This document shows, piece after piece, positions 14,732 to 62,410 of a stretch of 64,000 nt of DNA; position 1 is the stretch's first letter; the number at the start of each line of letters is the position of its first letter. Both the position numbers and the translations under genes were made by a program. Below the pieces are notes generated by a model. The model was not told the origin of the DNA, searched no databases, and saw only the letters and a program-made list of their open reading frames with translations. Source of the stretch: Pristiophorus japonicus (lineage: Eukaryota); the NCBI RefSeq assembly GCF_044704955.1, contig NC_091984.1:147870001-147934000 (forward strand), given 5' to 3'.

Positions 14732-16659
14732 TGCAGGTGGTTCTCTCAGCCGTACCAAAAACGCACCTCCTACTACAAGTTCTGGATGATAGGGATTATA
14801 TGGACAGATGAGACTTGGACACACGTTTTTCGTGTTCAACCGTATTGTGTTTAATAAGATTAACAACACCACTCATAAACAGTGCAAAACAGTACAACCC
14901 TGGCTTGTCCAATAAGCCCTGCCATGCTAAGTTACCACGGCTTAATAAAAGAACCCTCCCGTGAAATAAACTAACACAGGACCCCCCCCAGCACTAAACC
15001 CCTTGGGTTTGGTTGGGTCTTACAATCACCCCCTCACACAGCTAAGTGATCTTGTGGATGTGTAGGCGCAGGCAATATGCTCACCCTGATTGCCCGTTGT
15101 CTTGCTTGCAGCTTCTTCCTGAACGTCTCACTCCTGGGCTTTTTCCTGGGCTTTTTCCTGGGCTTTTCTGGAGCTTTTACCGGAGCTTTTTCCTGGGCTT
15201 TTTCCGGAGCTTTTTCCATAGCGTTCTTCCACCTGAGCTGGAGTTTGTTGCAAAGTGGCTCCTTCTATCCCCAAAACTCATCACTTCTTCCGCCCGCCAA
15301 TACCGACCGATGGATTGACTCCGGTGATCTGTCTGGACCCCTCCTCCCCCCGCTCCCCCCCGTGGCCTGGAGTGGCTCTTAGCCTTTGAAATCTTTGTGA
15401 AAAATGATATTTTATTTTCCCGTTCCCAGGCCTTGCATCTGGAGAGACAATGGGTGCTGATTACTGGATGTCTGTCGTTTCCTGAGTTGATGGCCCCCAT
15501 TAGCAGGTAATGTGTTTCGATCACAAACCGATCTTACTTAACCGGTTTATCTCCTGGAAGACAACGGCCCGGCCATTTCCTGCCTTGCACCAGTTTGGGT
15601 TGGGACTGAGTAGTGACTGTGCTTTAATAATGCGAAGGCACAGTGTCTTTGAGTTACCTCTCGGGGTATTGTTCCCAGGAATCACTTTAGATGGTGATGA
15701 CATCAATGGGCCTGGGTCCCCTGTTACCCAGCCTGTCAGTGTGAAATGTCCGGTTGTATATGAATGCAGCTTAGTGCCACCCCCACAAGCTCGCCAAACA
15801 GGACAGTTCTTTCTTGGGGATTTGGATTTCAGGATTTAAAGTATTGTTGATAGAAATGGCCAGAAAGCTGGTGCTACAATCCCCCTGATGATATTTTGTC
15901 ACCAAAACCAGAAATATCTCGATTCCGTCGTCTTCTGCTGCGGGAGGTGCATTGTGGGTCCATAACTGATCAATTACACCCGGGCTCCCGTTTCTTCTGA
16001 TTTCCTGATTCAGACAAACAGATACAACACCACCGTTCTGTGAGCGCTTTTTCCCTCCACAGGTCGGGCTTTCATTATTTACATATATATGCAGTTCGTT
16101 CCGCGTTATCAAGTGCCCCCAGTTAAAATCTCCTGTTGGGGCCTCTTGCGGCTCGCGGCTGGTGAGTAAGGAGGCATCCACGGCGCCCTAGGCCGTGGTA
16201 ACCGACTGTTTCTCCTTACTGTCCCGCCCTCTGGGTCATCATCATCATCCTACACCATGGGAGGAAGACCAGCGTCCACCAGGCTCATTATCGTGCCCTG
16301 GTTTCTCTTTGCCTTTGTCTTCCCCCCCCCTCGGGGTTAAACAACTTGCATTGGTTGATATGGCAGCATTTTGTATGTTTCGGGAGTCTGACTGCATATA
16401 CCATGTGGCTGGCCTTATCTACGATGTTATAAGGCCCCATGTACAGTGGCTCGAATGCCCCCACTCGGGCACAGTTCCTGAACATTACCTGGTCTCCCAC
16501 CTTCCACTCGTGGCTTCTCCGGGGCTCGAGTAGCAACCGATGTTTCCCGGTGCTGGTTCCCCAGGTTACTGGCTGCCTGCCAGTGAATCTGTTTTAAAAC
16601 CTCAAACAGATTCTGGACAAACCTGTCCCGGTTTACCTCCCGGTCATGAGCTCATGTGC
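14732..16659 (-). mobile_element. 3' remnant of endogenous retrovirus-like element 2 (integrase C-terminus, unknown 3' region, 293-bp LTR)
   Basis: ORF 16288-16536 (WKVGDQVMFRN..FEPLYMGPYNIVDKAS) is paralogous to the integrase tail at 19018-19536. PPT-like GAGGGGG at ~15029-15035. LTR at 14732-15024 starts TGTAAG; the other-arm copy ends CCTACA. Confidence 0.78.
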
Positions 16660-17644
16660 TGTAGGGTGTTGGTTTTCCACTCTACTCTGATTCATAGACC
16701 TCGGGATTTACAGGAAGGACTCCACGTAATGCAAAGTTTAGGCTTAAACCCAACTGTTAGTTTATTACACAAAAAACAATTAAACATTACAGAACAAGAC
16801 TTCTTAGAGATTGACCGAAGACATACAATCACCCATCCAGCCAGTTGCTACTGTTGTCCATTGTCGGCTCGTGGAGCGAGGGAAGGTGTTGTGGCCCTGC
16901 TCCTGCTTCGTGGCTGTAGTTCATTGACCTGCTGGTTTGAGATGTTTCTTCAACCTGTTCTTCCTCTCTCTGAACCTTTGTTCTCAGCTCTTACAGATAT
17001 ATCCATTCGATTATACACATCTCCTGCTGGGCTGCCTTTCAGTTAATGCAGCTGGATGAGTCTCGATGGCTGTGGTGATGGGTCTGGATCTGTTCGGATG
17101 GCCACAATTCACACATGTAATCGACGGGGCAAAAGATAACTCCTTATCTTTTGTGCCCCGTTATCCAAGAATGCATGCCTTGTGGGATCCTTTGTTGTCC
17201 TGGGTTTTCGCAGACTTGGAGTCTCCAGAGGGAACTGGTTTTCCCCTCCGGCCAATGAATCCATGGGCTGCTCTGCTTGATTGTATCAAACCCTTTGTCT
17301 CGATGTTAATCGGGTCTCACTCCTGACCCCAGAAATCACATTAATCAGTGATCAATCATCACCTGCCCCAGGCTGGTGCTCTTTCTCCTGCCCAACAGTC
17401 CCAAAGGTTTTCTTTTAAGCCATTTTAGTCCATGGCCTCTTGCTGTGCCTCGATCACAAAACATATAACCCTTACACTTCCCCCTTTAATATCTCTTGTT
17501 ATAAACTCAGAGACATTACTCTAGGTGGCTTCTTCTTCTTTCCCTTGAGCCCTTTTGGGTGTATTGCAGTCTTCAGTCAAATCTCCATATTACATACTTT
17601 TTACAACAAAACAATGTTTGGCCTTAATCCATCTGACTTCAGTT

Positions 17645-18829
17645 TATACTTTTACAAACACTTTCGCCTTGGTTGATTTTAATAACCTTTCAAGATTCCC
17701 TTCCCTCATCTTTTGCTTTAATTAACAGGACAAGACGAATTGATACAACACTATTACCAACTGTACAATTACTAACAAGTGTGATACGATTCGAACCCAG
17801 GAGGGGATCTCAATATTGAGTCCCACATCCCACTGTGGAGGGGCAATCATTTCCCCAATTTCCACCCTTACTTTTTCATTCTTTTGTTGTAACGTGTAAT
17901 AATGTTTGTGGGACAACTCGATGTTCTTTAACAGTTCAGTCAAATGTTCGGGTCACGGTGGGATATAGTATCCAACACGCGATATGTATCCCTGGAGGTT
18001 CGTAACGTATCATTGACTGTAATACGGATATTCTTGTGGTCTGAGATAGGAATTATTCTTTCTTGTGCTAACTGTGCCTCAACCTGGGGTTTGAAACAAA
18101 AGGAAGAATCTTTCAGCATTTTAGGGAGAGGTTTTAATCTGCTCGCAATCAGTTCGATCGCATTGACTGCCTTTGGTCAAGGTCACACAGGAATCAAAAC
18201 CCTGCGTCCAATTCATTCCTGACCCGGAATCCTGCCATTGTCATTTAAAAACAATCCCCACACCTCCCCTGCACTTGTGGCTAGATCCAACCACACAGAC
18301 ATAAATCCCTTGTTCCTCCTTCCACCACTTTTCCCAACACAATTTCACCCCTTCTCTTGTTCCTGTGCTCCACCTGTTTGAGTTTTTACCCAGTTTCTCC
18401 CATTCTGTGGATGCATTAACTTTTCCCCTGTCTTTTTTCTGTAACCACCACCACCTTCCCATGGGGGTAATCCCTTTACATTCCAGACAAACTCGTCTCC
18501 CCTCTCTCACCCGTACATTCCTGGCCGTGATGTTTAGCCTGGGGCAGGACACTGACACCTCCCCAAGTTTACCCTCGGTTTGTCTGGAGTACTTGGTCGA
18601 ATTTGACCCTAACCACCCTGGCCAGCTCCCAGTGTGAGCATAGGCGTTTGTGCCCTTGTTGCTCCGTATGGCTCCCCCTTGAGTTACAGTGGGGCCGGTT
18701 CCTCCCATACACCCGTGTGTAAGGAATGTCTCGGTGTCTCCCCGATCTCCCAATCCTTTAATAATAATGGCCATCCACAGGCCTATCCACAACGTCCACC
18801 TCCTCTCGTACCCTTGGCTCGATTCGCTC
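17645..18829 (-). pseudogene. env: env-like gene: signal peptide, Ig-like domain, heptad repeat, transmembrane segment (probably internally deleted, frameshifted)
   Basis: Splice acceptor TTTCTTTCATTTTTGTCTTTATAG at 18830. Hydrophobic WTLWIGLWMAIIIKGLG. Ig-like pattern VRVREGRRVCLEC..W..GIYVCVV. Heptad repeat LTELLKNIELSHKHYYTLQQKNEKV. TM segment IVSHLLVIVQLVIVLYQFVL. Confidence 0.7.
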
Positions 18830-19017
18830 CTATAAAGACAAAAATGAAAGAAATACCTTTGCTCTGTGGGGCCTCCCCCTCACAGGTCCTCCTTCAGTTA
18901 TTCACAAATGTACATAACTCCTTTTTACAATCACTGCTTCCCTCTCCTTTTATCCCGATGCTTGGGCTTACGGAGGCTCGGGGATGGAGATGTAGGAGGT
19001 GTCCAGGGCACGCTAGG

Positions 19018-22000
19018 TCACAGTACCTGACCACTCCACCTTACTGCTCCGTCCCTTACTTCTCCATCCTCATCATCCCACAGTATTGGTGGGAGGCTTA
19101 CACTGATCAAACTCATTATTGTTCCTGGGACCTTGGCCCGCTTTTTACTTTTCTCTCCGGGGTTGTACAGCTTACACTGGTTTATATGGAACCATTTTTT
19201 ATGTTTTGGCAGCTGGATCGCGTACACCATAGGGCTTGCCTTGTCTGCAATGCTATATGGTCCTTTGTACAGTGGTTCAAATGCCCCTATTCTGGTATAA
19301 TTCCTGACCATTACCTGATCCCCTGCCCTCCATTCCTGTGTAACCCGGGGTTCCAGCAGCAGTTTATTCTGCTGGTGCTGCCTGCCCATATTGTTAGCTG
19401 CTTCCCAATGCAGCCCCTTCAGAGTACCATACAGATCTCTGACAAACCTGTCCCGTGTGACCTCTTTAATCTGCGTTTCAGTCAGGACTGGTTCTAGGAT
19501 ATAGGTCGGGGTCATCATTAGTCTCCCTGTCATCATCGCATGTGGGGAGTGTCCCGTACTCTTAGAGAGACTGGCTCGGTGGTTCTTCAGTATTCAGGGT
19601 AGGGTCTCATCCCATTTCTTCGGGGTATCTCCTATTTCCTTCCTAAGCCTCTCTTTTAAGGTCCGGTTTGTCCTCTACTGGATCTAACGATTGGGGGTTA
19701 TACGCCACATGCCATTTCCCCTGTATCCCTAACAGCTTTAGGGTGGCCTGCATTACTGCTCCGGTGAAATGACTCCCTTGATCTGATTCCACTATCAGGG
19801 GCAGTCCCCATCGAGAAAATACTTCTCGCACCAGAACCTTTGCTGTGACTATCGCGGTGGCCGCCCCGACATGGAAAAGCTTCAACCCATTTTGTAAAGA
19901 GATGTATTAACACCAAGCAATATTTATTGCCTCTGCCTGAGGTGGGCAGTGGCCCAATGGAATCTATCTGTATAGACTGCCATGGCCCCTCTACCCTCCT
20001 CGTGTGTCCCAACGGAGCCTTCCTCGGTGGGGGTGTGGATTGTTTGTGGCACATACCAGACAATTCTGGCAATAATCCCTGACATCACTTCTAAGCCCGG
20101 GCCACCATCCCACGGCTTCTACTTTATTCCACATTGTTTCTGGCCCTGGATGTCCAGCTCCTGGACCCACATGCACCAGCTGCAAGAATTCTTCCCTGCA
20201 TTGCCCTGGCACGATCCAACTATCTCCCTTGAACAACATTCCTTGCTTTACTGCTATGTCTGCAGCTCCCAAAGGTCCCGCTACAGACTTCCCATCTATC
20301 TTGTCCCTAATCGCTGCTCTAAGGTCTGCATCCCGTAGCTGAGCCTGTTTTAAATCAGGCGGCAATGGGACTTCTTTGGGCCCCTCTCTGCCTGTTACAG
20401 CCGTGATCTGTCCACAGTGACATGGGTCCCAAGGTGTCCCTTCTCCTGCTCCTGTTTTAGCCAGTGTGTCTGCTTTCTCATTCCCTTCCCACTTGGGCTC
20501 TGTCTTAGATTGTGCTTTGACCTTTTGGATGTAGTAATCCTTCTGGTCCCTACCCGTGACATCCAAAATGACTTATAACAATGGAACCATCACCAACCAT
20601 TTTCCATCTGAGGACTTTAACCCTCGCCTCGCCAATATGGCTAAATACTCTGTACAGGAATTAGAAATGAACATGGAGTCTGAACATATCGTACAGGGAG
20701 TTGGGAATTCGTTTGGGTGTGTGACTACATACGCTACTGCTGCTAGCTCGGTCTGCTGCGTTCTTAAAGTGTTGGGGATTTTATGGCTTTCTCTATCCCT
20801 GCCTCAGGATCGTAAATCCCACAGCCTGTCTTTCTCTCTCTGTTTATTACTGAACTGGACCCAGCTACATAGACGTCCCTGCCTGTCAGGTGTTCTCCTG
20901 CTCAGAATCCCACATCTACATCCCACACTCCTTCCACTGAATACACATGAGCTGTCCCCGGATAAACCAGGCTCGGGGCTAGCTTTGGTTCTCCTGGCCT
21001 CTCGACCTTCAGGTCTAACTGAGTAAGCAACAATGTCCAGCGGGCAATCCTGTTACTGCTCACTGTCCCATCTTTCATTCTACCATCCAGTAACATTTGT
21101 GTTGTGGTGTGACAGGTCAGTAAAGTTACTGTAGCTAACCCTGTGAGCGACCGAAAATGCTTCACTGCCCAACATATTACTAACAGATGTCATTTGCAAT
21201 TCGAAAAGCTCTTTTCTACTTCGGTGAGAACTCGGGAGACGTAGGCCACCGGTCTCAGCTTGCCGTGTCGCTCCTGGAGTAACACTGCACTCAAACTGTC
21301 CCCAGTCATTGCTACCTCCAGACTAAAGTCCTGGTCCCCATTTACTGCTCCCGACGCTGGTGCTGTCTGTAACACCTCTTTTAACCAAATGAAAGTTTCC
21401 TGACAACTCTCACTCCATTCCCACTCTACTCCTTTCCTAAGAAGCCTCAACAAAGGAGCTGCCATGGTTACATATCCCTCTATGAATTCCCTGCAGTAAC
21501 CCGTTATTCCCAGGAAAGACCTTACTCCAGACACGTCCTTAGGAACAGGTAGTTCCTGGACTGACTTTCTCTTAGCTCCATCTATGGCCCTTTCTCCTGC
21601 CCTAATGGTCAAACCTAGAAACTGCACCTCCTCTTTGCCTATTTGAGCTTTCTGGGGATTTACTTTAAAACCTGCTTCTTTCAACAAATGCAGTAACTCA
21701 CGCAATAATGGCCTGTGGTCCTCCGCACTTTCGGAGAATAACAACAGGTCGTCCACATATTGGACCAACCGGTCTGGCTGACTAAAACCGGTTAATGCCT
21801 CGGCCATACTTTGGTGAAAGTTCGAGGGACTGTTGTGAAACCCTTGTGGAAGACATGTCCACATATACTGCTGACCTTTAAAGGTAAAGGTAGATTTATA
21901 CTGGTCCTCCCGTCTCAGGGGAATGGACCAAAACCCGTTTGAAATGTCCAGCACTGTGAAAGTTGTTGTGGCCGCAGGGATACTCCCGATCAAATCCGCT

Positions 22001-22826
22001 ACCACTGCTACCGTGGGCGCACAGGCTGGAATATTTTTATTCAGGATTCGATCATCTACCGTGGCCCTCCATGAGTTATCGGGCTTCTTTACTGGCCATA
22101 GGGGTGAGTTTACATGTGTGGCTATGGTCCTCAACACACCTTGATCCACCAGGGAATTTATAGCAGTTTCCAAATCCCTTTCTGCTTCCCGGGGAAAATT
22201 ATACTGTTTTTGGGGTCGTGTCATCGAATCCCCGTCTATCTTCACCTCTACCCCAGATACTCTCCCGCAATCGTGCTTGTGCATTGCAAACGCATCCATA
22301 TTCTACCGTACATACCTTGATACCGGGCCGGAATGTTATCGACTAATCGTTCTCAGTCATAACTCTCTTTCGGCTTCATCGTGCAGGTGCTACCTTTGTC
22401 TGCACTGTCCCTGGGAATCACTACGATCTCTCCCATCTTATCTGCATCAACTGCCCCCCATAGACAATTGTTTTCCATATCCACTGTGGTGTGGTGTGCC
22501 AACATGTAGTCGGCCCCGAGAACTCCCGAACCGGGCTGTTCCCACCTCATTAAAATGCCCTCCCATTTCATTATGTTCGGCCCTAACTCTACGGTTAAGG
22601 GTTTCCACACTGCCCCAGCCTGCTCATTACCCGTCAAACCCACCAGTGTAAATGGTACTCCGCTCGACCACGGGGAAGTGGTCGGATTCGGTGAGTGGAC
22701 AACCGTGCTAGAGGCTCCTGTATCTACTAGATCCCTTCCCCTAACTGTTTCCACCTTCACATCCACACATGACCTGCCCCACCCATCATATATGAGCAGA
22801 CACAGGTATTCTGGCTGGGCACACCG
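19018..22826 (-). pseudogene. pol: pro-pol: aspartic protease, RT, tether + RNase H, integrase with GPY/F tail
   Basis: LVDTGAS. LDISNGFWSIP, LPQGFHNSP and YVDDLL lie in a 369-aa ORF (21190-22299). GNEKADTLAK (RNase H). HHCC zinc finger, [18 protein letters not shown] and YKGPY (integrase). Confidence 0.9.
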
Positions 22827-24487
22827 TCACAGTGGGGGTGCCGACACATTGGGTCCCTTTTCTCCCACTGCTGCGTCCAGCTTTCCTCCACCTGTGCCCA
22901 TAACTTGCTGTAATGCGGCCACTAAAACCTGTACTGGGTCGTCGGCTACCTTCTTCTGGCCTTTTCCTGCCTCAGCACCTCGTACCCTGGCTTCCCTCCT
23001 TTAGAGAGCCTACAATCCTTGCTCCAGTGTCCCAACTTCCCACAGTTAAAACACTCACCTTTAGATCAACCCGCATTACCTCCCTCTTGTCTCCATTCTT
23101 TCTATGGCCTAACCTCTCCTTTTACTTCGTGCACCTTCCCGTTTAGTTTCTCCTCCTCCCCTTGCCTGGACTTAAAGCTAGAGTTAATCTTCTCAGCACC
23201 CCTGCCTCTGTATTCTGGAGATGGTCTGGGTCAAACCATACTTCGACCTTTGCTCTGAGCCGTGGCAAACTGTTACCATTACGGTTCTCAGCCAATGGTC
23301 CCTGGGTTCCCCTATTAAATCTGCCCGCTCCAGATTTCCTCCAGCGGCCCTTAAATAAATCGCCCACAGTCTGTCTGCAAACGTATCGGGCGATTCGTTT
23401 ATTTGCTGCCTAGTCTGTTCTACCTGCCAGAACGGACTACCCTGACTGTACCCGAGCACTGCCATCATTTGCTCCTTTAAGCCCTGTGGGGTTCCTGCAC
23501 CTAACTTGGTGGCTGTCGACAAGCTCTGATAAAGCTTCCCCTCCAGCGAGAGCAGTGTTAGCTTCACTTTCTCCTCCTCGCTGCAGTTATTGATACCCGC
23601 TATCTGCTCTATATTAGTAAAATGAACAGAGGCATCTCCTCCTTGCTTTAACTGTACCACACCCGTCAGCATCTCCTGCAGCTGAAGCGGTGTGTATGGG
23701 ATCACTAGTCGCTCTGTAATGGTGCCGGACCACCATTTGGGGGGGTGGGCTGAATTTCTGCTGTCTCAAAGGACACATCGGTTTCAGGGGTCCCGGTGCC
23801 TCGGGAGACGGCCGATGCTCGTGATACTCGGGCCCATCGTCTGACTCTTTCCCCTCTGGATCCCAATCTTCCTCACCTGTTCCAGGTGCCCTGAGACAAA
23901 CCATCCCTTTGGTCCCGTCTAACTCTGCCGTTAATTGGTGGATCTTTTCCTTACAAGGTCCGTGATCTGTTCTCGCGTAACCCTGTTTCTGAGCTACCTG
24001 ATAGGCTATCGACTCTCCTGAGCTGGTCCTCTGCCTCTTTGGCTCTTTCTAAATTTCTTTCACTTTGTTCAATGCGGGTCTGCTGCTGCTTTTTGCACTC
24101 GGTCACCTGGCATTGTAAATATTCAAAGTGATTCCGTGCCATTTCTTCCTTCCTACCCTGGTCCCGCCTTTCCTTCTCCAAACTGCCTACCTCGCCCTTT
24201 AACCCTTTATTCTCCTCCTCCAGCTTTCCTACCCTTTCTCTTAACAGTTGTGTCTGCTTCTGCAGGCACATGAGCCAAACCGCCTTCTTTTTTGACCCTT
24301 TGTGGTTACTACTGACTGTCCACTCTGCTGTTTTTTCCTGCGGATCCCCAGAGTGCAGCATTTCCCGTGCCCATGGCCCTGAAATGTTCAATTTGTTGCC
24401 TATATATGCAGCTACCTTAGCCTCTATGGACTTCCTATGACGACTGTTAGCTGCGGGCTCTACCACGTTTTGCTGCGGTGAGCCCAT
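22827..24487 (-). pseudogene. gag: gag (coiled-coil N-terminus, capsid-like region, CCHC knuckle), frameshifted
   Basis: ORFs 23951-24487, 23614-23904 and 23193-23705. Zinc knuckle CFNCGKLGHWSKDC at ~23012-23053. Confidence 0.8.
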
Positions 24488-24499
24488 TTCCAGTGCTTC

Positions 24500-25170
24500 T
24501 GGCTGAGAAATTCTCCGTGACTACCTTGGTGTCCCCTGAGACCACCTCGCAGTGACCTGCGGTTCCTGTTACTCTGGCTTCTCTCTGTGGCTACCCGAGT
24601 CGACCCGAGACTACTCCAGCATGTCAGAGACTTTCTCTCCTGGTCCCCTAGTCACCCTTGAGATCACCTTTGGCCTCCCTGAGACGACCCCGTGACAATA
24701 TTGGCTTTTCTCTGTGACTACTCCAGTCAACCGAGATTATTCCAGCCTATCCGAGACTGTTTCTCTCCTCAGGCTGCCCTGGCTGCCCGTGAGATTATCC
24801 CTGGCCTCCCTGACACCCTGCGCAGACTACCTGCGATTACTTCTCCCGGTTGCTGCCCTAGTCAGCCGGAGCTCTTCGGCTACTCCTGGTCCCCCTTGAG
24901 ATTCCCTTGGTCTCCCTGAGACCCCTGTGCAGACTACCTGCGGCTTTCTCGGTGGCTACACTCGTCAACCCGGGATTACTCCAGCCTACCCAAGACTGAT
25001 CCTTCCTCTGCTGGCTGCCCTAGCTGCCCTTGAGAGTACAATGGTCTCCCTCAGACCACTGAGCAACTACCTGAGACTTCTTTTCTCAGTGGCTACCCTA
25101 ATCGACGGAGACGACTCAAGCCTATCAGACCCTGTTACTCTCCTGGTCGCCCTAGCCGCCCTTGAGAAGA
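24500..25170. repeat. Degenerate ~110-135-bp tandem repeats (~5 units) in the retroviral 5' leader
   Basis: Recurring blocks TCTCTGTGGCTAC..GATTACTCCAGCCTA..GCTGCCCTTGAGA..CTCCCTGAGAC..GACTACCTG. Confidence 0.65.
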
Positions 25171-27499
25171 TCCTTTTCGACCACCTTAGCTGACCTTAGA
25201 CATAACCAAGCCTCCCTCGGGGTTTTTGCTCTGGTATGTGTCCGTGATACTATTCCCAAAGCCGAGGTCCTGCCGCGGTCACCAATTTCTGTAGGTAGTT
25301 TGTTTTTCACTCTGCTCTGATTCTTAGACCTGGGAACTTGTAGTGGGAAAGGACAACATGTGGCACAACATTTAGGCTTCACCCAGTGTCAGTTTTATTA
25401 TGCACAAAAACCGTCGAAAACTACAGGACTAGACTTCTGAGAGAAATCGACTGAAACCATACAATTGCCCTTCCTGGCTGTAGCTATTGTAGGTTCGTGG
25501 TCATTGGTTGCGTGACCGGTTGGTTCTTCTTCTGGCCGTTCTCTGCAGTGCTGTTACTTCTGTGTACGTTCCGTACAACATGTTCCTCCGTCCATTCATC
25601 TGTTCGTGCTTTCGACCTGTGTCCATCTGTACAGGTGTCCTTCTACTTCTTCTGTGTGCTTCTTCTTCCGTCTGTTCCTGTCCTTGTTCCATCTCCTGCT
25701 GAGCTGCTTCTAGCTCACATATTTATATCCAGGTTATGACTGATCTCCCGCCACTGCGCTTTCTGATAAAGTGTTTGCATCAATACATTGTTTTGTGGTC
25801 CACTTGGTTGATTGATTACAATAATGAACTCGTCTGTTTTCCCATTTGCACACTGAGTCTGCAAGGCTCAAGTTGATTTCTCATCTTAACACCTCATCCT
25901 AAAAAATGTGCAACTGTTGTGGTTCCTTTGTTGTCAGGTCCTTTTACAGACTTGGGGCTAGAACCTCCTCTTTTATTGCCTGTTTAATGCCCACTTAACA
26001 CCCATTTTACCACTGAAATGACATATAACGCCCAGATATCACCCATTTTGGTACAAAATGGAAACTGACGGGCTTTTTTAGGAGACTTGTCGCCGAGCGT
26101 TACTTTCCCAATGGGCTTAACGCAGAGAATAAATATTATCGCCCACCTACTTTTTTGGGGCGGAATCAGCAGAATGGGCAAATTCAGCGCCCATAGTATC
26201 ACCCAGCGTTACTTTCCTCATGGAATTAATGCCGAGATTCAACATTAACACCCGGCGACTGTTTTTTGTCATGAACAGCATATTTACCCAAAGTAACGGC
26301 CATGGAGATCACCCACCGTCAATTTCACCACCTCGTACACATATCGCCCACAATATCGCTCGCTCAAAAAACCACCCACAAAAAGTGGAACTAACCAGAA
26401 CGAATCACAGCGTTATGGACGCCGTGATGTAGATCACATGTCGCGTCCTTTCACCTGGGCGGAGTTCGGATGTACTCTGCAGGTCGTTGGAGTTGATTTG
26501 AATATCTCTGAAAACATCTTGACCACACTGTGACCAATTGGAATTGAAGAGGTGTGCTCGTCGGGACATTCTTTGCTTGTGTGCAATCGGTGACAGACAC
26601 AGAGCTACTGCAATGGGGCCTGTCCTTTCTCACCCTCTCTTGGTGACCAAATATATGCAGCAGACTCAACATCGCTGAAGGAACGCGACATTGCATTATG
26701 TGCCCAATGTACGAAATAACAGTCAGATGAGGAGGACCAGACATTACACCCCCCGCAAATACAAGGAGAAGCATTCTTACCTCGACTTGCCTGACACCAC
26801 CTGCCTTCGGAGACTGCGCTTCCACAAAGAGGTTATCACTGAGGTATGCCAGCTGATAAGGGCAGGCCTACAGCCTACCAGCACCATCAGAACTGCACTG
26901 TCCGTCGAGGTCGAAGTCACCACGCCACTATCGTTCTATGCTTCGGGTTCTTTTCAGGCCACAGCTGGCGACATTTGCAGACTTTCTCAGCATGCCACAC
27001 ATTGCTGCATTAGACAGGTCACTGAAGCCCTGTACGCACACAGGAGGGACTTGATCAGCTTCCCTATGACCAGGGAGGCACAGAGTGAGAGGGTTCGAGG
27101 TTTCTCCAGAATTGCAAACTTCCCCAAGATGCAGGGAGCAATAGACTGTACGCACATCGCGATGTGGGCACCTTTTCAGGATGCCGCAAGGGATTCCACT
27201 CCCTGAATGTCCAGCTGGTTGTCGACCACCAGCAAATTATACTGGCAGTGAATGCTCAATTTCTGGGCAGCATCCATGCTGCACACATCCTGCGTGAGAG
27301 CATTGTATCTGACTTGTTTAACATTGAGCCACAAGGTCAATGCTGGAAACTTGGGGCCAAAGGATATGGCCTTGCCACCTGGCTGATGACCCCATGTGTG
27401 ACACCCACACTGAGGCCGAGAGGTGATACAACGAGAGCCACAGAGCAACTCGCAATATTATGGAGAAAACCATTGGAGTGCTGAAGCAGCGCTTTAGAT

Positions 27500-38645: not shown

Positions 38646-38974
38646 CTACGCACATTCTGCTCTCCTGACCCCCTTGCTGAGGGGAGAGGAGAGGCTCTCG
38701 TGGGTGAGGCTGCAGGAGAAGCTGGCGTTGGACTCCCAGTCGGAGCCAGAGAGGGTCAGCAGGCTGCTGACACTGTAGGTGTTGTCCGAAGCTCGCAGGT
38801 AGTCGCTGGTCTGGACCCCGGCCGAAATGGTCGCCCCGTCCTTCTTCCACTCCACCTCCACCGCATCGGGGTAGAAGTGATCGGCGAGGCACACCAGGGT
38901 GGCAGTGCCCTTGGTCGTGACCTCCTCCGGGATGGGGGGCAGCAGGGTCAGCGTGGGTTGTGTCTTCCCTCGGC
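38646..38974 (-). CDS. IGKC: Immunoglobulin light-chain constant exon, kappa (shark type III / NS4-like)
   Basis: Acceptor CTTCTCCTCCCTTTCAG at 38975. Phase-1 open exon RGKTQPTLTLLPPIPEEVTTKGTATLVCLADHFYPDAVEVEWKKDG..YSVSSLLTLSGSDWESNASFSCSLTHESLSSPLSKGVRRAECA*, with both C1-set cysteines, the Trp and the terminal Cys. Confidence 0.95.
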
Positions 38975-62080: not shown

Positions 62081-62382
62081 GTATCAGTGGGGACATCATC
62101 ATGACCCAGTCTCCCCCGGTGCTGTCAGTGAGTGAGGGACAGACTGCAACCATCACCTGTACCGCCAGTGCATCCGTTAGCAGCAGTTATGTTAATTGGT
62201 ACCAGCAGAAAGCCGGGCAGAAACCCACTCTGCTGATCTATGCAGCAACAACTCGTTTCACTGGAACCTCCGATCGCTTCACCGGCAGTTACCAGTCCAA
62301 CACGTTCACCCTGAGCATCAGCAACGTGCAGAGCGAGGATGTCGCAGACTATTACTGTCAGTATGGGTATAGCTCCGCTGGA
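62081..62382 (+). CDS. IGKV: Ig kappa V exon, germline and unrearranged
   Basis: Acceptor TTTCCCCCTCAG. Translation [51 protein letters not shown]. Confidence 0.96.
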
Positions 62383-62410
62383 CACTGTGATACACAGCCG
62401 GACAAAAACC
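62383..62410 (+). other. Recombination signal sequence with 12-bp spacer (kappa configuration)
   Basis: Heptamer CACTGTG, spacer ATACACAGCCGG, perfect nonamer ACAAAAACC. Confidence 0.95.

Follow-up and report, generated by a model that had tools for sequence, protein, structure and literature searches.

A defective provirus within an immunoglobulin light-chain locus

The window analysed here is a stretch of 64,000 nucleotides from Pristiophorus japonicus. It contains a defective provirus on the minus strand, together with V and C exons of the host immunoglobulin (Ig) light chain (Table 1). The V exon with its RSS, the C exon, and a light-chain J and C located just outside the window confirm the initial annotation in placing the provirus inside an Ig locus. 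Pfam matches in the pro-pol region comprise RVP, RVT_1, RT_RNaseH_2, RNase_H, Integrase_H2C2 and rve. All ORFs of the provirus are broken, and the env remnant, which by our reading of the sequence runs from 18879 to 17645, carries three in-frame stops and two frameshifts. Upstream of the remnant's coding part, a pyrimidine tract ends in AG at 18831-18830. Toward its end, a heptad-like stretch, a Trp/aromatic segment and a TM helix fall within 17952-17725, with the helix itself at ~17790-17725. The splice acceptor, hydrophobic leader, Cys/Trp/F-strand Cys pattern, heptad repeat, Trp segment and TM segment that the initial annotation had described are thus all in place. The pattern from the B-strand Cys to the first Trp also stands, with a spacing of 8 residues rather than the 7 it had counted.

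Table 1. Features of the provirus and its host context in the window
Feature	Position	Strand	Basis
Defective provirus, LTR-gag-pro-pol-env-LTR, likely SnRV-related	16660..25948	-	
5' LTR (TG...CA), followed by a PBS-like TGG at ~25284	25290..25948	-	
gag, broken, with coiled-coil N-terminus	23143..24520	-	
pro-pol, broken: protease, RT, tether, second RNase H, integrase	19018..22826	-	Pfam
Predicted env splice acceptor	18830..18855	-	sequence alone
Signal-peptide-like hydrophobic stretch, without the initiator Met of dispersed sisters	18750..18792	-	
Ig-like domain, ~105 aa, ended by a stop at 18241-18243	18244..18558	-	
Deletion junction, ~1.15 kb gone	18105..18115	-	
C-terminal remnant of env with HRB-like helix, Trp-rich segment, TM and short tail, disrupted by frameshifts and stops	17645..18110	-	
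3' LTR, of another subtype than the 5' LTR, preceded by a polypurine tract at 17487-17477	16660..17476	-	
Host Ig light-chain C exon	38649..38963	-	context
Host Ig light-chain V exon, RSS with 12-bp spacer	62098..62410	+	context

The 5' LTR is 81-89% alike the 3' LTRs of three sister copies (L031, L040, L047), and the 3' LTR is 69-89% alike those of five others (L032, L039, L044, L046, L049), while the two window LTRs agree at 72.5% over 204 nt. No target-site duplication of the window provirus is evident, and its 3' end adjoins an integrase fragment of a related element (16291-16660, 70-77%). Since its LTRs belong to different subtypes, a target-site duplication is not evident and its 3' end abuts the related integrase fragment, the window provirus is a mosaic. 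On the other side, a Harbinger-like DDE transposase remnant (26679-27484, plus strand; Pfam DDE_Tnp_4) adjoins the 5' LTR.

Copies duplicated with the light-chain clusters

The 183-aa env ORF of the window has at least 150 matches at 66-99% on many contigs of the same genome (150 of 150 candidates scored). The best 24 of these, at 92-99%, map within the light-chain array or next to it (contigs C8, C1231, C53 and C113) and are referred to as cluster copies. They have flanks in common (9/9 tested on the 3' side, 8/9 on the 5' side) and mostly lie 44-50 kb from a V exon. The shared flanks and this spacing together indicate that the cluster copies are one insertion, duplicated with the light-chain clusters. 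The array itself has recently expanded. Light-chain V exons 83-95% identical to that of the window give 69 matches in both orientations, most of them on C8 and C1231, and dozens of such exons lie at 143.3-148.8 Mb of C8.

The succession of signal, Ig domain and stop could also mean that the host recruited the window copy as a secreted protein with a single Ig domain, acting in the light-chain locus. Consistent with this, the stop follows directly after the domain in 19 of the 24 cluster copies, and 17 of the 24 have no internal stop. However, none of the 24 has an initiator Met, and their dN/dS is 1.5-1.8 with intervals spanning 1, just as for the dead integrase of the same copies. With neither constraint nor a start, the cluster copies are unlikely to have been recruited to make a soluble Ig protein, and the duplication of one insertion with the clusters speaks against it too. 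A related idea, that the Ig domain came from the local kappa genes, conflicts with its presence genome-wide and in skate-labelled proteins. The domain also lacks similarity to the local V (BLASTP E 0.26; hhalign P 0.6%) or to the local C (no alignment), which bears out the initial annotation on this point. We regard either form of the idea as highly improbable; a co-opted host gene at the locus is largely refuted by the missing start codon and the lack of purifying selection in the cluster copies. The window copy is a dead passenger of the light-chain cluster duplications, and its position in an Ig locus is incidental.

Sister copies and the central deletion

The ~1.1 kb total of the window env had suggested a central deletion, and this deletion is real. 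Twelve of the 21 distinct dispersed sister copies fetched hold 1.11-1.19 kb more at window position ~18110, and the other nine are interrupted or truncated there. The segment lost from the window env comprises the F2-like core, the furin site, the putative fusion peptide, HRA and most of the Cys-rich region, and a short AGATTC microhomology is present at both deletion ends. The junction is read through by 17 of the 24 cluster copies as it is by the window copy. An initiator Met, absent from the window copy, is present in 16 of the 18 scorable dispersed copies.

The same genome harbours a younger sister family whose gag, pol and env are open, with env frames of 735-806 aa, an RT 78% identical and LTR pairs 99.5-99.8% alike in both copies tested. 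Its open gag contains a CCHC knuckle and continues into pol in the same frame, with a stop between the two, and its env carries the same N-terminal Ig-like domain; no RNA record is listed for this env. The sister proviruses therefore keep the domain, a point on which the initial annotation had staked its Ig reading, and open relatives have been recovered. Searching longer proteins for homologues with the short window ORF found nothing. Homologous proteins are labelled skate, sawshark, other shark and frog, and the Ig-like domain is present in those labelled skate and sawshark. Throughout the family, Env is ordered as signal, ~55-aa arm, Ig-like domain, linker, F2-like core, RxKR/RxRR site, heptads, Cys-rich region and TM.

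Predicted F-type fold of the fusion part

The F core is deleted in the window copy. The fusion part was modelled with AlphaFold on L065, a natural open sister env of 777 residues (36-row alignment, mean pLDDT 52). All PDB rows listed by Foldseek for this model are paramyxo/pneumovirus F proteins, the best being hPIV3 F at E 1.8e-9. VIA aligns NDV F over 330 residues at Z 11.2 (rmsd 16.7), RSV/hMPV F at Z 8.8 (rmsd 5.5-6.1) and foamy Env at Z 7.1. The top 15 VIA rows, from Z 11.2 to 5.7, are all F proteins or foamy Env, with unrelated rows at or below 5.0, and the match to F covers residues ~246-712. At the sequence level, Pfam gives no match to PF00523 (F) in the env sequences, and sequence-profile searches of PDB return no F proteins. 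The model thus gives good support to a predicted F fold (domains I-III) in the Env of the open relatives. The sisters also have an RxKR/RxRR basic site, long helices, a TM and a putative fusion peptide that is weakly hydrophobic. The family Env is accordingly predicted to be a class Ib (paramyxo-F-like) fusogen that would mediate membrane fusion.

The same model was also searched against BFVD. An unnamed 928-aa entry ranks first, followed by the Env of walleye epidermal hyperplasia virus 1 in second place (E 2e-12) and that of walleye dermal sarcoma virus in fourth (E 3e-11), both above paramyxovirus F. Judging from these predicted folds, epsilonretrovirus Env may be F-type; the available part of PMC9967133 describes it as lacking gamma-type hallmarks.

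An Ig-like domain at the N-terminus

V/I-set Ig domains are marked by a B-strand Cys, a C-strand Trp and an F-strand Cys, the two Cys being 55-75 residues apart. The key residues of the window domain are the B-strand Cys at 18480-18478, the Trp at 18453 and the Cys of EQGIYVC at 18297-18295, which follows the B-strand Cys by 61 residues. These residues (Cys105, Trp114 and Cys166 of the 183-aa ORF) are conserved across the family, as are four further Cys, and the B-F spacing is within the V/I-set rule.

Four tests bear on the fold: Pfam Ig_3, ESM features, HMM-to-PDB comparison and a low-confidence model. Pfam Ig_3 is found in the window ORF (E=0.0077, 17 bits), in five of the eight sister ORFs that hold the whole domain (E 0.011-0.029) and in all three open young-family envs (E 0.0014-0.017), always below the cut-off; scores overall are 15-20 bits against a cut-off of 30, so that no Ig match reaches a curated threshold. 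The nearest ESM feature neighbours are of the I/V-set (0.94, 174 shared), on a scale where shuffled proteins reach 0.9 in 4-10 of 100 cases. In profile searches of PDB, the first places go to CD8a (E 0.05) and CRTAM (E 0.0028), with JAM and DSCAM also on top alongside CRTAM. The AlphaFold model of the window ORF is all-beta with a mean pLDDT of 37.6, and every Foldseek row listed for it is an Ig-fold chain (best E 5e-3), the check that the initial annotation had proposed for ORF 18241-18792. Antibodies are, however, over-represented in PDB. In VIA the rows are mostly Ig V domains, with Z up to 6.8 and a TCR V at Z 6.7 (92 residues aligned, rmsd 2.8); the top row is a phage baseplate protein, and a Z under 8 may reflect merely a common beta-sandwich. 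Residues 95-195 of the full L065 model match embigin and a BCR chain at Z 4.7-4.9.

Such signals could arise from a chance Cys/Trp pattern in a viral domain of another fold, as the sub-threshold scores, the low pLDDT and the shuffled-protein control would allow. Against this, four methods converge on IgSF, the predicted strand order fits Ig, and UniRef independently names a distant homologue 'Ig-like domain-containing'. A chance pattern is therefore improbable. Four weak but concordant tests give moderate support to an Ig fold, which the N-terminal domain quite probably has. An env with an N-terminal Ig-like domain in front of an F-type fusogen, as proposed at the outset, is thus supported, its Ig signature being weak but beyond chance. 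No donor host gene was found for the domain, so that its capture, as the initial annotation had supposed, is putative, and so are the receptor-binding or immunomodulatory roles suggested there.

The frog-labelled homologues (P0018, P0025 and P0029-P0042, one cluster of 16 near-identical members) also have an Ig-like N-terminal domain, which scores 0.91 by ESM features. The occurrence of Env homologues in shark and frog echoes the shark-frog grouping of foamy-like ERVs described in the available text of PMC5512871. Three further Env families in the same genome (L108-L115), with RTs 42-46% identical to that of the window, share the F core and carry different Cys-rich N-terminal domains. An hhalign comparison that took in the local V besides the N-terminal domains of six Env groups gave no significant pair (P at most 6.3% among the lineage domains), and thus demonstrates neither common origin nor independent capture.

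Selection and divergence

The Ig-like domain was under purifying selection in the dispersed copies. Pooled pairwise over 21 of them, its dN/dS is 0.35 (codon bootstrap 0.23-0.51; the pairs are mutually non-independent), next to F core, RT and integrase values of 0.30 (18 copies), 0.40 (8) and 0.36 (13), respectively. Read in its two other frames as a control, the Ig region yields 0.74 and 0.89. The domain was thus of importance to the replicating virus. In the young family, five copies give an interval of 0.17-9 for the same domain, too wide to be informative. Between the two families, identity is 78% in RT, 54% in the F core and 46% in the Ig domain, which is the most divergent part. Fastest divergence of this domain is the pattern that an exposed binding module would be expected to show.

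Relationship to known retroviruses

Counted by hand over ~132 residues against the alignment in the lokiretrovirus supplement, the window RT is ~48% identical to SnRV, ~39% to HERV-L, ~38% to SFV and ~36% to a lokiretrovirus. Its PDB scores are 190 bits for the MLV type, 183 for foamy and 131 for Ty3. Judging by the hand count and the RT motifs, the provirus family is likely related to snakehead retrovirus (SnRV), and seemingly nearer to it than to lokiretroviruses.

The initial annotation had implied a lokiretrovirus. According to the available part of the published description (PMC7947760), lokiretrovirus Env does share the F type, signal, RxKR site, heptads, Cys-rich region and TM with the Env described here; by eye, the F core begins with the same GPxxG-I/L-VL and the order of motifs is similar. 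Both proviruses also have a dual RNase H (tether plus RH) and a coiled-coil ORF upstream, but the dual RNase H is not diagnostic because it is shared with all retroviruses. In contrast, 22 of the 23 lokiretrovirus Envs in that source have an N-terminus, and all 22 pass from the signal directly to the GP motif, where the present Env has ~200 aa including the Ig-like domain. As far as the source goes, the fusion peptide is strongly hydrophobic in lokiretroviruses and weakly so in this family, and the RT motif is PFG(Y/L)xNSP in the former and LPQGFHNSP in the window. The 22 N-termini without the domain and the hand-counted RT identity both speak against the implied identity. One available row of the lokiretrovirus supplement gives 0 for Orectolobiformes (3 genomes; Wang & Han 2020, PMC7947760).

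SnRV-like ERVs have been reported in elephant shark (CmiERV lineage I; Han 2015, PMC4422223). A gag and pol in one frame across a stop, as in the young family, is a further point of likeness to this group. The accessible text of that paper mentions neither an F fold nor an Ig domain for SnRV or CmiERV. Some of the families described here could possibly belong to the shark/frog clade of foamy-like ERVs, in which env was not detected according to the available part of PMC5512871. Against such a placement of the window provirus, its RT is nearer to SnRV than to SFV by hand count.

Discussion

We propose, with a probability of about 0.6, that the locus is the broken env of a many-copy shark ERV, likely SnRV-related, which encoded an F-type fusogen with a likely Ig-fold receptor-binding module at its N-terminus. 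In this proposal, env would be translated from a spliced RNA and the Env protein cut by furin to yield a class Ib fusogen, with the Ig-like domain retained on the surface subunit. The domain would then grip a cell-surface protein and trigger the refolding of F. By analogy with coronavirus N-terminal modules, or with the foamy RBD on the same scaffold, it may replace the separate attachment protein of paramyxoviruses. The window copy itself is incapable of such entry, having lost the fusion core and been carried along by cluster duplication.

Receptor binding by the Ig-like domain is probable by analogy with known systems. Paramyxo/pneumovirus F and foamy Env (class Ib, PMC11468914) resemble the predicted fold of L065 residues ~247-709. 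As described in the available part of that source, F has no N-terminal module and its own Ig-type domain II is distinct from the domain discussed here, the foamy RBD lies inside the scaffold and not in front of it, and F is a scaffold that accepts receptor-binding modules at its N-terminus. The initial annotation took Ig folds to be non-standard in retroviral Env. This does not hold for gamma-type Envs, since the RBD of MLV/FeLV (RBD-C) is a modified IgV and Env-Dbi has a SIRP-derived IgV RBD, according to the accessible text of bioRxiv 2024.03.17.585361. From the same partial source, these RBDs are like the present domain in being N-terminal Ig folds with a Pro-rich linker to the fusion machinery and extra disulfides; unlike it, they are mammalian and sit on an unrelated class Ia scaffold, and the SIRP-like RBD has an identifiable host donor.

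Binding by F-type Envs does not require such a domain, because those of lokiretroviruses manage without it, and two other roles have to be weighed. The domain might be an immune decoy, derived from a host IgSF receptor (CD8/CRTAM/nectin/SIRP-like) and engaging inhibitory receptors of shark leukocytes, with entry left to the F part. The best PDB neighbours at the sequence level are indeed immune or adhesion IgSF domains, a SIRP-derived IgV is on record in an Env, and the published lokiretrovirus Envs need no such domain. However, the matches are weak (E 0.003-0.05) and indicate no single donor, and the domain, fused at the position of an RBD in all lineages seen, diverges faster than F; the decoy role is unlikely. 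Slightly less so, though still rather doubtful, is the role of a structural cap, in which an old beta-sandwich of viral origin rather than recent capture would stabilise the prefusion trimer while receptors are bound elsewhere, for example by the arm or the F head. An N-terminal domain of some kind, with a similar V-x-x-G..V/L-x-C strand, occurs in each of the six Env lineages identified in the genome and in the frog homologues. The Ig-like features of the frog domain and the lack of a host donor would also fit a cap. The lineage domains, on the other hand, have no detectable homology, which better fits exchangeable modules.

So far, F-type Env has been regarded as peculiar to lokiretroviruses, errantiviruses and foamy viruses, and the Ig-fold RBD as peculiar to gamma-type Env. 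F-type Envs and Ig-fold RBDs were thus each known already, and what seems new here is an Ig-like domain on an F-type Env. No description of this combination was found in the full-text literature searched. The combination of an Ig-like module with an F scaffold, in a probably SnRV-like lineage, joins the two themes and bears on the origin of retroviral env. It also offers a small, separable candidate binding domain for a group of fish retroviruses. More tentatively, a shark-and-frog clade related to SnRV might combine the F fusogen with an exchangeable N-terminal receptor-binding slot, occupied by Ig domains or by Cys-rich derivatives. Taken with the Envs of lokiretroviruses, foamy viruses and walleye epsilonretroviruses, the F-type fusogen would then be a widespread, possibly ancestral, aquatic retroviral envelope, with repeated Ig capture.

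Two further observations concern individual envelope genes. The full-length Envs P0014 and P0043, labelled from two shark orders, are 86% identical, reflecting either a conserved co-opted gene or a cross-species jump. An open env frame of 786 aa (L063:3351-5708, contig C18) is a candidate for co-option by the host. It has a decayed integrase as its neighbour and belongs to an old family, in which no other match exceeds 89% identity over the best full-length hits.
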